In this document: piece by piece, positions 655-17,114 of the stretch
Layout: the number at the start of each line of letters is the position of its first letter
Position numbering within the stretch: the stretch's first letter is position 1
DNA from: a virus
IMG/VR virus record: IMGVR_UViG_3300025276_000032
Location: 3,348 to 67,347 of that record
Direction: 5' to 3' (one strand)
DNA: 64,000 bases
Notes under the pieces: model-generated
Databases searched by the model: none
Told to the model about the DNA's origin: nothing
Seen by the model: only the letters and a program-made list of their open reading frames with translations
Program-made: the position numbers and the translations under genes

Positions 655-942
655 TTATTGGTCCAAATATGTGCGAAGCAAACGGCTTCTGCTAGGGTGC
701 TTCAACATTCTCAAAGCTTTGTCTTGGATTTGACGTATACGCTCTGGAGCTAAATTCATAAGTACGCCGACTTGAGCCAGTGTCATTTTTTCTTCTGAGA
801 GAAATCCGAAACGTGCTTTCAGAACCAAACGCATTTGATCTGGCAAAGTATCAAGAACAGTGGATACATCTTCAGAAAAATTCATCTTATCGACATTCAT
901 TTCATAAGAAACATCATTTAATTGTACAAATTCGATAGTCAT
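655..942 (-). CDS. Stand-alone sigma70 (RpoD) region 4 domain protein
   Basis: VLKARFG...TLAQVG...ERIRQIQDKALRMLKHPSRSRLLRTYLDQ closely parallels the RpoD C-terminus. Confidence 0.85.
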   Translation of the reverse strand: MTIEFVQLNDVSYEMNVDKMNFSEDVSTVLDTLPDQMRLVLKARFGFLSEEKMTLAQVGVLMNLAPERIRQIQDKALRMLKHPSRSRLLRTYLDQ

Positions 943-4520: not shown

Positions 4521-5182
4521 TTCATGGCACTCCGCGCTTTAGACATACGCTGACTCATCTTGCGCCACTGGTCTGGTGCCATGACTTTCTTATTGATTGA
4601 CAACTTCAACTTCTTTTCTTTAAAGCATTTTTTCAGATAAGTGGCTTGCTCTTTACCGATGAACCGTGATACCAACTTGAGTAGATCAATACGAAACTGT
4701 GTATCGTGGTGCATATTACCAATAGAATGAGCTAACTCATGGAGTAGTACGTATTGGTTCAATCCGATAGGTAGATCGTCTAAGCCGCGAGTGGTATTCA
4801 ATTCAATATGATGCCCCCACGCTCTGCCAGCAATTCTTGAGCCGCGCATAGTTCCTAGGGTTATAGCTAAATTCTCGGAAACTCTACCCTTGCTCATTTT
4901 CTTCCAAGTGGCAGAACCAAGAACTTTATCGCAATACTTTTGAGCCATGGCAATATTGGCAAACTGGAGACCCATGCCGTATGTACGCTCATACTTAAAT
5001 TCTGAATTATATACCTTAGAACGGTCACTATCACGCGAATATTTACCATGCTTACGACCAGTATTGATAAGGGTCCGCTTCTTATTCAGATAAGAGAGGT
5101 ACTTTTGGATCTCCTCATTGTCCCAATTCTCGCCTTGAAGGGCTTTGACAACGGGCTTCTGATCTGAACTATAACATAACAT
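4517..5182 (-). CDS. HExxH zincin-like metallohydrolase
   Basis: VLLHELAHS...HHDTQF motif. Confidence 0.7.
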   Translation of the reverse strand: MLCYSSDQKPVVKALQGENWDNEEIQKYLSYLNKKRTLINTGRKHGKYSRDSDRSKVYNSEFKYERTYGMGLQFANIAMAQKYCDKVLGSATWKKMSKGRVSENLAITLGTMRGSRIAGRAWGHHIELNTTRGLDDLPIGLNQYVLLHELAHSIGNMHHDTQFRIDLLKLVSRFIGKEQATYLKKCFKEKKLKLSINKKVMAPDQWRKMSQRMSKARSAMK

Positions 5183-5203
5183 GGTAGTCTCCTAGTAGAT
5201 AAG

Positions 5204-5521: not shown

Positions 5522-5563
5522 ATCTTTTTTTCCTCTCTTTACACCGCTGGTTTCACTGTTTTT

Positions 5564-5857
5564 CTAACGTGTCTCGCTTGTATCATCTATTTTGATACCG
5601 TTTTGTCCATACACATAGCGAGGTGCTACTGGCATAGATGCTGTTGGTGCATGTGTCTTAGTTTGTCCCTGAACGTATACCATTCCTGTTGGTTGACCTG
5701 TTGCGTCTTTTCTTTGATATAGTGTTCTACTCTCTAGTTCTTCTATTCTCTTTAAGCACATGGATACTTTATCTTCTAACTCATATATCTTTAACTCTAA
5801 CTGATTTGTCATTGTTGTTTTCCTTAGAATATAGTTATGATATCTTTCTTGGTTCAA
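5564..5857 (-). CDS. Hypothetical coiled-coil protein
   Basis: 97-aa ORF; start uncertain. Confidence 0.55.
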   Translation of the reverse strand: MNQERYHNYILRKTTMTNQLELKIYELEDKVSMCLKRIEELESRTLYQRKDATGQPTGMVYVQGQTKTHAPTASMPVAPRYVYGQNGIKIDDTSETR

Positions 5858-9090: not shown

Positions 9091-9294
9091 AAATTTCGTG
9101 AGTATCTCGACAACATCAGCATCTAGCAACTTTGCGACTTGCATGGCTTGTTCTTTAGTGTCGAATACTAAATCATTTCTCACAGGCATTTGATAGATTT
9201 TATATCCTAACTCGCCTGTCATTACAATATGTTCTACAGTTTTACCGTTACGTTCTAATTTATACAACTCGTTATTCCTTATATTAAATTTCAA
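9076..9294 (-). CDS. Hypothetical protein within the RNA island
   Basis: 72-aa ORF, TTG start, stop codon lies inside the tRNA 5' end. Confidence 0.45.
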   Translation of the reverse strand: MKFNIRNNELYKLERNGKTVEHIVMTGELGYKIYQMPVRNDLVFDTKEQAMQVAKLLDADVVEILTKFARVA

Positions 9295-9445
9295 GGGTGG
9301 AGACTATGCACAATCCCCACCCCCTATTTGTCTTTATCGCGGACAACCACGCTCTGCTTTTCGTCGGTACAGAGTATTTACCGACCTAGTACCACCTTGC
9401 AAGGCTTTCATTCCGACTAGGGTTTCACTGAGTATATTACTCAGC
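9295..9445 (-). ncRNA. Putative structured RNA with two H-type pseudoknots and a terminal hairpin
   Basis: Stems CTGAGTA/TACTCAG, CCTAGT/ACTAGG, TCGGTA/TACCGA + CTCTG/CAGAG, CGTGG/CCGCG + TTGT(C)/(G)ACAA, and a 12-bp hairpin GGGTGGGGATTG/TAGTCTCCACCC. Confidence 0.6.
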
Positions 9446-9449
9446 TTCT

Positions 9450-9526
9450 TGGTGGACCCTACAGGACTCGAACCTGTAACCTACAGCTTAGAAGGCTGTT
9501 GCTCTATCCAGTTGAGCCAAGGGACC
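9450..9526 (-). tRNA. tRNA-Arg(UCU)
   Basis: 77-nt cloverleaf, loop CTTCTAA, GGTTCGAGTCC T-arm, encoded CCA. Confidence 0.93.
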
Positions 9527-9535
9527 TATTCTTTA

Positions 9536-9617
9536 TAGACTGCTTTTTGATACGCCCTTACGAACATGGGTTTTAGTTAGCCTTCCCTCTCCCACAGACG
9601 TACCAAAAAACAGTCTA
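9536..9617 (-). ncRNA. Putative small RNA unit 1 (about 21-bp terminal stem)
   Basis: TAGACTGTTTTTTGGTACGTC pairs with GGCGTATCAAAAAGCAGTCTA; non-WC pairs are G-U only on the minus strand. Confidence 0.65.
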
Positions 9618-9800
9618 AACTTCTTACTACTACGCCCTAGGATGTCTCAACGATTCGATATAACTCTGACCCTTTGCTGATCAGTATCTAATTGTTTCAT
9701 CGACAGTGAAATTGTTTAATGCTTTCTCTTCCCTCATTATGAGGAGGCTCGCGCAACATTTGACATTACTTCATTCACGGACGCAGTAGTAAGAAGTCTA
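9616..9800 (-). ncRNA. Putative small RNA unit 2 (22-bp terminal stem, multibranch interior)
   Basis: TAGACTTCTTACTACTGCGTCC pairs with GGGCGTAGTAGTAAGAAGTTTA; internal hairpins CCTCA/TGAGG, TTTCA/TGAAA, CTGATC/GGTCAG. Confidence 0.65.
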
Positions 9801-9930
9801 AGAGTACTTTTTAACAGGGTTATGTCCTACTGTCGGAACACATTCTTTATCGTTAGGTCTAGGTTACGTAACACAGACGCTCCCAAATCAAAACAGCAAA
9901 TAAAATTTGCACCCTGTTAAAAAATACTCT
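9801..9930 (-). ncRNA. Putative small RNA unit 3 (20-bp terminal stem, cloverleaf-like interior)
   Basis: AGAGTATTTTTTAACAGGGT pairs with ACCCTGTTAAAAAGTACTCT; three internal hairpins. Confidence 0.65.
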
Positions 9931-9938
9931 CTCTCTAG

Positions 9939-9986
9939 TGATTCTTTTTCTATAGTTATAATAGCATAACTAAGATACATTGTCAA
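9939..9986 (-). promoter_or_regulatory. Early promoter repeat copy 8 (drives the RNA island)
   Basis: TTGACA-N17-TATTAT, GATTC at 9940-9944; followed by non-coding units rather than an ORF. Confidence 0.85.
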
Positions 9987-10204
9987 CCCCTAATTTTCCA
10001 TTCTTCGCGGAGTGTGAGAAGGCGTAGCCTCAGCGTAGTTTCTCTTGCTTTTGCTGGATCTAATGCCCTTAGCTGAGTTTCTAGAATTTCGATGTATCTT
10101 TCTTGAACATTGACATTGGCTTTAAGACTGCGATTTCTATTGCCGAGAACCATCGCCTGCGTCTTAAAATAATCTAACTCTAAGTCTTGCAATTCTTGAG
10201 ACAT
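9983..10204 (-). CDS. Hypothetical coiled-coil protein
   Basis: 73-aa ORF with AAGGA SD. Confidence 0.65.
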   Translation of the reverse strand: MSQELQDLELDYFKTQAMVLGNRNRSLKANVNVQERYIEILETQLRALDPAKARETTLRLRLLTLREEWKIRG

Positions 10205-16182: not shown

Positions 16183-16289
16183 TGGCTCTGAGGGCAGGAA
16201 TCGAACCTGCACGAATAAATATACATTTACGTTAGTATATATTCACGGTATAAACAGTACCGCGCGTCTACCAATTCCGCCACCTCAGA
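16183..16289 (-). tRNA. Non-canonical 107-nt tRNA with GUU (Asn) anticodon and 35-nt variable region
   Basis: TCTGAGG/CCTCAGA-G-CCA; D arm GCGGAATTGGTAGACGC; CGGTA-CTGTTTA-TACCG; T arm GCAGG-TTCGATT-CCTGC. Confidence 0.85.
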
Positions 16290-16295
16290 TAACTT

Positions 16296-17114
16296 TTATA
16301 GTTTATCTAAGGCTGCAATCATTCGTGTCATCCCGATGCCGCCGCCACTTCTAGGGAAAAATTCAAATTCTAAGAATTTCTCAAGTTCATCCTCAACCCT
16401 TTGATCTCCGAATAAACTCTTAATCAAACCAGCGTATTCACCATTAGAGATTGTATGGAAGGTATCTCTCATTTGATCTTTATCAGTACTGCGTTCAGCA
16501 CTACCAATTGTTTCCATGCCACCCAGAATAACATCAATCTTTCTGCTAGTACCATCCTCATTTCTAGACATATTCCAAAAAGGGCTTGTCATTTCTGGAA
16601 ATTCTGTAATCATACAAGAGCCAAACGATGATTGCATGGCTAATTCGTGTTGTGCGTCTAGTTCTGTAGATGCACTAGCCCCATAGTGTTGTTGCCATTC
16701 TCTATAAGTTTTTTCTGTGGGCTTGTCAAAACCCAGATGTTTGCATAGCTCATATTCCATTTCTTTCAGATCATCAATACTGCCGGGCATTTCAAATTCA
16801 AACATAGGAAAAATCGTATCATGTCTGCCTGGGATTGCATTTGGTTCTTGACGATATGAGGTCGAGACACAAAAAAAGCCCTTTGAAGTAGGGCTTGTAA
16901 GTAATTCATGTTCTAGCCACATTTGACCTGTTTGAGGCAATGGCCACGTCTGATTTTCATATTGATAAGTTGCTACATTTTCGGGGTCTTCACATGCAGC
17001 TAAAATACTTAATCTATTTTGAGTATGTACTTCCTCAAAGCCTTTATTTAAAAAAAAGTCCCTAAGGAGGGACACTGCATTAGTAAATTTTTTAGGATCA
17101 ATTAGTTGAGTCAT
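16296..17114 (-). CDS. Class IIb (Asn/Asp/Lys) aminoacyl-tRNA-synthetase-like protein, catalytic domain only
   Basis: Motif 1 GFEEVHT, motif 2 YRQE...RHDTIFPMFEFE, motif 3 GGGIGMTR; 272 aa, no room for an N-terminal OB-fold. Confidence 0.85.
   Translation of the reverse strand: MTQLIDPKKFTNAVSLLRDFFLNKGFEEVHTQNRLSILAACEDPENVATYQYENQTWPLPQTGQMWLEHELLTSPTSKGFFCVSTSYRQEPNAIPGRHDTIFPMFEFEMPGSIDDLKEMEYELCKHLGFDKPTEKTYREWQQHYGASASTELDAQHELAMQSSFGSCMITEFPEMTSPFWNMSRNEDGTSRKIDVILGGMETIGSAERSTDKDQMRDTFHTISNGEYAGLIKSLFGDQRVEDELEKFLEFEFFPRSGGGIGMTRMIAALDKL

Follow-up and report, generated by a model that had tools for sequence, protein, structure and literature searches.

The window analysed here, a stretch of 64,000 nucleotides (nt) from the 67,347-base-pair (bp) IMG/VR virus record IMGVR_UViG_3300025276_000032, carries on its minus strand a gap-free array of three structured RNA units, U1 (9801..9930), U2 (9616..9800) and U3 (9536..9617), set between an early promoter and a tRNA-Arg gene. 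We conclude that U1-U3 are real RNA genes and that they constitute a new family of early phage small RNAs. This conclusion draws on the structures themselves, on selection acting on the RNA of one strand, on a dedicated promoter, on the modular make-up of the array in related phages and on the paralogy of two of the units. We also lean towards a wider account, in which the units would be noncoding RNA modules of an early precursor, their closing helices would be processing or stabilising stems of the RNase III type, and their apical loop would act in trans. This account supposes co-transcription with the tRNA, cleavage within the stems and stable products that act away from their own transcript.

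Structure of the array and selection on RNA

The whole record was scanned on both strands for uninterrupted helices, with G-U pairs permitted. The closing stems of U1 (9800-9931; 21 bp including 2 G-U), U2 (9615-9801; 23 bp including 4 G-U) and U3 (9536-9617; 22 bp including 4 G-U) are the three longest such helices in the 67,347 bp, and the next measure 20 and 19 bp. Neighbouring stems overlap by 2-3 outer nt, so that the array is free of gaps and about 20-22 bp per unit can form simultaneously. No open reading frame (ORF) of at least 40 amino acids overlaps 9295-9982 on either strand, and the transcript is untranslated for about 650 nt. The first-pass annotation, made from the letters alone, had described an exact tiling by three stem-closed units without an ORF, with G-U as the only departure from Watson-Crick pairing. 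The stem and ORF scans bear out its coordinates and its anatomy, and the three closing stems contain no mismatch of any other kind.

These structures exceed chance. When the record was shuffled 20 times with its dinucleotides preserved, stems of at least 21 bp arose 0.05 times per shuffle (maximum 1), against three observed side by side. Folding of the 419-nt stretch yields -146.7 kcal/mol (z = -10.3), a stability equalled by 0 of 100 shuffles, and the single units U1 and U3 give z-scores of -7.0 and -6.8. The closing helix measures 22-24 bp in relatives and 21-24 bp overall, across stems of three different sequences. A 19-bp stem at record positions 2618-2703 was set aside, as it lies inside an ORF and is unrelated to the array.

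Relatives were reached through the neighbouring Fe-S assembly (ErpA/IscA-like) gene, which gave 24 IMG/VR loci, 6 with units and 7 with the tRNA only, and through pattern scans with the core common to U2 and U3, which gave 6 IMG/VR and 35 metagenome loci. Real units account for 23 of the 35 metagenome matches; the other 12 (L034, L038, L039, L041, L042, L044, L050, L054, L056, L058, L062 and L065) were excluded as chance matches to the pattern. The core pattern had no match in 185,579 prokaryote genomes. In all, 13 distinct U3, 13 distinct U2 and 8 distinct U1 sequences were collected.

The alignments of these sequences carry the case for RNA. The consensus fold of U2 has 45 pairs. Changes on both sides occur in 7 of them, distributed among all five helices, and pairing holds in 99.0% of cells, versus 29-50% when the partners are moved by 1-3 columns. 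The fold of U3 has 30 pairs, 2 of them compensatory, with 99.5% of cells paired versus 39-49% under the same slide. For U1 the consensus has 47 pairs and no both-side changes; 7 pairs vary on one side, and pairing is kept every time. In column shuffles the observed covariation score was reached in 0 of 500 for U2 and U3 alike, while the count of double-change pairs was reached in 57 of 500 for U2 and in 184 of 500 for U3. Cells with G-U outnumber those with A-C by 66:1, 56:2 and, in U1, 62:0, a total of 184 versus 3. Against a covariance model of U3 (R1), the sense strand scores 97-107 bits and the antisense strand 22-33. Because of this excess of G-U over A-C and this gap between the strands, selection acts at the level of RNA, and on the minus strand, which is what the first-pass annotation had read from the wobble pairs and what the covariation now sustains.

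The units differ in what the helices enclose. U1 has a closing helix of 20-21 bp, a three-hairpin junction and an internal GCGUCUGUG. The 23-bp closing helix of U2 carries a P2 hairpin, enlarged here by an insertion specific to the lineage, and in addition a P3 domain of about 60 nt; U3 has a closing helix of 22 bp and a P2 hairpin whose sequence hardly varies. U2 and U3 have in common the outer UAGACU…AGUCUA and the top of the closing helix, where an invariant, wobble-rich GCGUCU / GGGCGU has G-U in 3 of its 6 pairs, as well as the inner CGUCYGUG / AGGGCGUA that accompanies the 5' UAGACU. Their P2 hairpins have a 5-bp stem, GUGGR/YCCAC, which covaries (GUGGA/UCCAC and GUGAA/UUCAC), and a purine-rich loop, GAGGGAAGGCCAACU, the apical loop being purine-rich and Shine-Dalgarno-like (GGGAGAGGGAAGGCC…). 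The arms of U2 and U3 differ at 6 of 21 positions, all of which are still paired, 5 of them because both strands have changed; what is conserved in the arms is helix length and pairing, not helix sequence. Among the 13 distinct copies of U3 only 2 positions vary in the apical hairpin, while the stems drift. The apical stem of the extra domain of U2 covaries in its turn (CUGAUC/GGUCAG versus CCAAUC/GGUUGG), and its loop region retains AAAGGR.

Judged by sequence, U2 and U3 are paralogues, with U3 the minimal form and U2 equivalent to U3 plus the extra domain, so that the array does not consist of three unrelated cargos. The shared motifs listed in the first-pass annotation are real, and only their assignment went astray, the unit numbers having been inconsistent: the sharers are U2 and U3, and GCGUCUGUG is held by U1. 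U1 and U3 are identical at 13 of 16 nt in the 5' arm and junction (…UUUGGGAGCGUCUGUG). The P2 insertion is found in the U2 of the window and in the related loci L064 and L047, and is itself variable. Two candidate features were rejected along the way: a CCUCCU (anti-Shine-Dalgarno-like) hairpin in the U2 insertion of the window, which is not conserved in L047, and a micro-ORF in U3, whose AUG in the window copy is AUA in most relatives.

Modularity across related phages

Tallied over 26 distinct arrays, the order promoter-U1-U2-U3-tRNA-Arg occurs in six, the window included (the promoter pattern is unmatched in one of them), promoter-U1-tRNA-Arg in two and promoter-U2-U3-tRNA-Arg in one. One further array, L005, has a small 13-bp hairpin followed by U2, U3 and U3, and three are cut by the contig end. 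The remaining 13 belong to a second phage lineage, the flanking genes of which have no counterpart in the record of the window. In that lineage U2 and U3 occur together once, U2 alone eight times and U3 alone four times, always at the same promoter-proximal site; the next gene's own promoter follows directly in 10 of the 13 arrays, and a tRNA in 0 of 13. The tRNA-Arg gene is found without any unit in L003, L004 and L007. All copies of the units are promoter-proximal and in sense orientation. The modular cassette proposed in the first-pass annotation is therefore sound as anatomy, units being gained and lost between relatives.

The borders of the units suggest how this may come about. In L001, where U1 is the only unit, just TAGACT remains between U1 and the spacer before the tRNA. 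The segment repeated in L005 comprises the end of the U2 3' arm and U3, and many loci, the U2-only copies among them, have a chimeric 3' arm, part U2 and part U3. Such junctions point to recombination within the arms. From their distribution U2 and U3 look interchangeable, and we therefore place the function in what they share.

Several other elements were observed at these loci. At the usual position of U1, L005 has a fourth small module (5146-5198) with a 13-bp stem and a 23-nt purine-rich loop (z = -4.2). The place of tRNA-Arg in the same locus is taken by a tRNA-like element (5545-5665) in which a UCU anticodon loop, T arm and acceptor stem can be recognised, along with an insertion and an extra enclosing 9-bp stem; it has no normal D arm and is called by neither ARAGORN nor Rfam. 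Fragments resembling the 3' half of a tRNA (T arm, acceptor strand and CCA), likewise not called as tRNA, lie at about 5385-5450 of L009 and just upstream of U2 in L032 and L037, that is, upstream of the unit promoter or immediately before U2.

Transcription unit and carrier phage

The array is headed by an early sigma-70-type promoter on the minus strand (9958..9986), with TTGACA, a 17-nt spacing, TATTAT and a TG before the -10, which matches at 11 of 12 positions and agrees with the dedicated early promoter that had been placed just upstream of the units. About 15 early promoter-plus-leader cassettes, all nearly identical, occur in the record, the one at 9986-9958 among them; they lie on the minus strand at, for example, 54, 396, 1007, 3219, 3765, 4316, 5251, 9986, 11446, 12547, 47096 and 47467. 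Their layout is TTGACA, 17 nt and a -10, then a conserved leader (…TAGAAACAGAATCAC…), then GAAAGGR and ATG. When the cassettes are read through by eye, each of the others leads within about 30 nt to an ATG preceded by a ribosome-binding site of consensus GAAAGGR, and the cassette of the array is the only one that is followed by neither. Its purine-rich leader (9931..9951, minus; …AGAAAAAGAAUCAC…) is of the early-cassette type; we infer the start point, and a contig from RNA libraries reaches 25 nt 5' of U1. A search for copies of the leader gave 45 IMG/VR loci, 41 of them with distinct downstream sequence. An ORF is entered within 80 nt in 29, and no stem of at least 16 bp starts within 120 nt in any of the 41 distinct sequences, so that no further stem-closed modules were found behind the shared leader.

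Downstream of U3, an A/U-rich spacer of 9 nt (9527..9535, minus; AUAAAGAAU) leads to tRNA-Arg (9450..9526, minus; anticodon UCU; ARAGORN), at the distance reported in the first-pass annotation. In L001 and L002, which lack U2 and U3, the spacer directly follows U1. Since tRNA-Arg lies on the same strand, and the scan detected no intrinsic terminator on the minus strand between the promoter and the tRNA, tRNA-Arg is presumably co-transcribed with U1-U3. Directly beyond it lies a conserved structured RNA, which we call X (9293..9449, minus; approximately 150 nt), whose 3' end is a G+C-rich hairpin. In an alignment of 8 sequences X has compensatory changes in 17 of 33 predicted pairs, and it has no match in Rfam; the transcription unit of the array probably ends with it. 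A small ORF and then a tRNA-Met follow, and two true tRNAs are all that ARAGORN calls.

Elsewhere in the window, Rfam gives a 104-nt tRNA match at 16186-16289 (minus; 46.9 bits) that ARAGORN does not call. About 33 nt of its variable region form a hairpin, and its anticodon loop, read from the alignment as CUGUUUA, corresponds to anticodon GUU. The match adjoins a gene (16296-17114, minus) for a 272-amino-acid protein that consists solely of a class II aminoacyl-tRNA synthetase (D/K/N) core, and a similar 107-nt tRNA match occurs at 8068-8174 of L003.

RNA-library data were available as assembled contigs from four marine libraries, which may include DNA and cannot show ends. One contig of 166 nt (depth 12) holds U1 with 25 nt of leader, and another of 1146 nt (depth 8) holds U1, a short-type U2 and tRNA-Arg and extends upstream past the promoter. 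These contigs lend weak support to transcription and none to processing. Gaps in the library data and the ends of contigs prove nothing, and the depth at the tRNA sums many organisms.

The carrier of the array is an uncultured marine T4-like myovirus. Its record, of which the window makes up 64 kb, is 30% complete by CheckV, and the minus strand carries nearly all of its genes. Markers of T4-related myoviruses in the window include a T4-type RNase H, a SegE-like GIY-YIG endonuclease, a class I ribonucleotide reductase, PhoH, baseplate and tail-fibre proteins and many sugar-modifying enzymes. By RNase H, the nearest cultured phages are Pelagibacter phage HTVC008M (41% amino acid identity) and Methylophilales phage Melnitz (38%), and the DNA runs that contain the array stretch are marine, seawater and brine metagenomes. 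A blastn search of 9300-10000 against 50,697 phage records matched in the tRNA-Arg part alone, and the 73-amino-acid gene adjoining the array has no relatives in IMG/VR. A 95-amino-acid protein encoded at 655-942 (minus) is barely more than sigma-70 region 4 (Pfam E = 7.9e-14), and may be an early modifier of host transcription.

Processing, rival explanations and meaning

In the account towards which we lean, the host RNA polymerase would make one untranslated early precursor consisting of the leader, U1, U2, U3, tRNA-Arg and X. Each unit would be an independent module, in which a helix of 21-24 bp joins the ends and bears a small apical domain. Host RNase III would cut these helices of about two turns, or the helices would at least shield the ends, and the modules would be freed from the tRNA precursor as stable, hairpin-closed small RNAs, with RNase P and RNase E freeing the tRNA at the A/U-rich spacer. 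The invariant apical loop would be the effector, acting in trans by binding protein or RNA, be it as a protein sponge, by binding the 30S subunit or by loop-loop pairing.

We read the helices as processing or stabilising stems because their size fits RNase III and because rRNA and T4 tRNA precursors offer a precedent. RNase III sites are also present in the early transcripts of phage T7. Stalks cut by RNase III have an uninterrupted helix of about 20 bp or more, and the three units have 21, 23 and 22 bp, with 22-24 bp in relatives. In E. coli, RNase III contributes to the maturation of T4 tRNAs and cleaves rRNA precursors within double-stranded stems, an arrangement that releases 16S and 23S rRNA (PMC4810235). 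As in the stalks of rRNA operons and the T4 tRNA precursor, a helix of about two turns would flank RNA to be excised from a polycistronic transcript that is untranslated or early, and, as in other precursors processed by RNase III, tRNAs would share the precursor with the array. Unlike those stalks, the array has three helices tiled without spacers, each around a small conserved RNA, whereas the stalks of rRNA operons, T7 and T4 enclose rRNA or an mRNA boundary and have no sequence similarity to it.

Several points weigh against this account. The covariation comes from 13, 13 and 8 closely related sequences, and so from few independent events. R1 had no hit in the distant relatives L010-L024, in HTVC008M or in three larger contigs, which makes this a narrow family, and because the family is absent from these phages the units are dispensable for this kind of phage. 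The 166-nt contig holds the leader and both arms of U1 uncut. A phage gene for RNase III was not found in this record or in three related contigs (all four 30-55% complete). That the rules of RNase III carry over to the enzyme of the host would be an argument by analogy. Finally, a helix of 22 bp could equally be a mere exonuclease clamp or a platform for protein binding.

The rival that survives best would make the units cis-acting parts of the leader of a tRNA operon, degraded afterwards, that shield the untranslated transcript from Rho or RNase E or order the processing of tRNA-Arg and X, comparable to the RNase III site in the T4 tRNA precursor and to the put-type antitermination RNAs. The units do fill the stretch from promoter to tRNA-Arg without spacer in a transcript that is untranslated for about 650 nt, and the involvement of RNase III in T4 tRNA maturation (PMC4810235) would suit such a role. 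However, the 13 distinct arrays of the second lineage have units without any tRNA, tRNA-Arg exists without units in L003, L004 and L007, and a mere structural spacer would not need an apical loop as nearly invariant as that of U3 (2 variable positions among 13 copies). We consider this explanation unlikely.

The possibility that the units are palindromic mobile insertions at the level of DNA, like miniature inverted-repeat transposable elements, with the RNA structure a by-product, fares worse. In its favour, arm boundaries are where units have been gained, lost or duplicated (L001, L005 and the chimeric U2/U3 3' arms), and the same phages carry a clear DNA-level palindromic insertion. That insertion, at 4326-4463 of L005, is a 138-bp element with perfect terminal inverted repeats of 28 bp and an inner inverted repeat of 18 bp (TAATACCATGGTATTA-type); it is inserted in a promoter that is present in duplicate, with about 30 bp of flank repeated around it, and by its layout it looks like a mobile element. 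Similar palindromes occur at about 4790-4860 of L003. However, the 184 G-U versus 3 A-C cells reflect selection on one strand, pairing and length persist in the arms of U1, U2 and U3 although their sequences differ, which would not be the case for ends recognised by a transposase, and the internal hairpins covary too. The apical-loop sequence is invariant and the array has a dedicated promoter. No target-site duplications were seen at the unit borders, no transposase was found among the 96 window ORFs scanned, and the copies are all promoter-proximal and sense, none being scattered or found in both orientations. A mobile origin of this sort is thus very unlikely.

Described families were sought with Rfam 15, a comparison that the first-pass annotation had itself proposed. 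At gathering scores the window gave only tRNAs, with the units unmatched. The units were also unmatched at E up to 10 over 9250-10050, where retron, YrlA and ROOL/GOLLD/manA models gave no match, and at E up to 0.1 in four relatives; the sole other match in these runs was a sub-threshold antisense hit on a tRNA. Searches of this record and of three related contigs, all four incomplete (30-55%), turned up no gene for a reverse transcriptase (RVT_1) or for TROVE/Ro60, and the 96 window ORFs scanned against Pfam include no reverse transcriptase, TROVE/Ro60, RNase III or transposase. The analogies drawn earlier with retrons and Y RNAs thus fail in the comparisons that were made. YrlA and retron msr-msd RNAs do resemble the units in that a terminal stem brings their two ends together around a structured cargo. 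YrlA is defined by tRNA-like T and D arms, which are not evident in the folds of the units.

T4 itself has two orphan stable RNAs, species 1 (rnaC) and species 2 (rnaD), in its tRNA cluster beside tRNA-Arg(UCU). Whereas the array precedes tRNA-Arg, both of these come after it; their folds have no 20-bp terminal helix, and that of rnaC includes a tRNA-like T arm. R1 had no hit in the T4 tRNA region (L066), a weak test, as Rfam has no rnaC or rnaD model. The likelier positional counterpart of rnaC and rnaD is X (9449-9293) rather than U1-U3. Thus, membership of a described terminal-stem family (retron msr-msd, YrlA, 6S RNA, small signal recognition particle RNA or T4 species 1/2) is highly improbable: it has in its favour a general likeness of paired ends around a structured domain and, for the T4 RNAs, the place beside tRNA-Arg(UCU) in a T4-type phage, and against it the lack of Rfam matches at the thresholds given above, the absence of RVT_1 and TROVE genes from the four fragments, and the position of rnaC and rnaD downstream of tRNA-Arg, their lack of a long terminal helix and the failure of R1 to find them.

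We return to the account in which the modules are processed from an early precursor, and to its putative effector. In sequence, the apical loop of U2 and U3 is similar to the ribosome-binding sites that precede early genes of the same phage (GAAAGGR, compared with the loops GGGAGAGGGAAGG and AAAGGGU). It also contains a self-complementary tetranucleotide, which is GGCC in most copies, GUAC in the commonest type of U2 and GGCU in the U3 of the window. The step from GGCC to GUAC is a double change that preserves self-complementarity. Given that both inner bases changed, the chance odds of this are about 1 in 4, and for that reason self-complementarity is only a lead as a sign of function. The phage-borne ROOL, GOLLD and manA-motif RNAs are frequent neighbours of tRNA genes, ROOL and GOLLD being 'often near tRNA islands', and have strongly conserved structure (PMC12286853); they self-assemble via kissing loops (PMC12286853; bioRxiv 10.64898/2026.07.01.735769). 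The tetranucleotides GGCC, GUAC and GGCU in the U2/U3 loop recall those kissing loops, and that U2 and U3 might self-associate is a guess by analogy. Unlike ROOL, GOLLD and manA RNAs, which are ornate and 400-800 nt long, U1-U3 are simple stem-closed modules of 82-185 nt. A search of the record for targets complementary to the unit cores gave matches of 10-12 nt only, in about the number estimated by chance.

It is tempting, if rather doubtful, to regard the units as exchangeable early 'display' RNAs, in which the two-turn helix would be a rigid, nuclease-resistant scaffold that presents the invariant loop resembling a ribosome-binding site. Such RNAs might soak up a host factor (the 30S subunit, protein S1, a CsrA-type protein, or a nuclease of defence or decay) or pair mutually via the loop, and phages might swap and multiply the modules by recombination in the arms. 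A decoy or anti-defence function, as suggested in the first-pass annotation, is speculation.

We found no description of the U1-U3 RNAs in the literature, in a search that left most subscription journals and supplementary files outside its reach. The family, and its architecture of gap-free interchangeable modules each closed by a two-turn helix, appear to be undescribed. The kind of RNA is already known, namely the orphan structured RNAs beside phage tRNA genes (T4 species 1/2, ROOL and GOLLD). Of the 'undescribed system' first announced, the undescribed RNA family therefore stands, and the system was overstated, as its setting is an ordinary phage RNA/tRNA transcription unit. The locus is a clean new phage RNA family and not a new kind of system.

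Phage small RNAs beside tRNA genes, such as T4 species 1/2, ROOL and GOLLD, have gone without a function for decades. The array offers a case that is tractable at the bench, with modules of 82-185 nt, clear covariation and an invariant putative effector loop, and with natural variants in which modules are present, absent, doubled or swapped. Its expression is from the earliest promoter class, in an abundant group of uncultured marine myoviruses. If the helices are RNase III sites, the array would show how one compact phage precursor can accommodate several stable RNAs together with a tRNA; should the loops bind a host factor, the units would represent a new kind of early takeover RNA; and if neither holds, they would be one more family of orphan structured RNAs.

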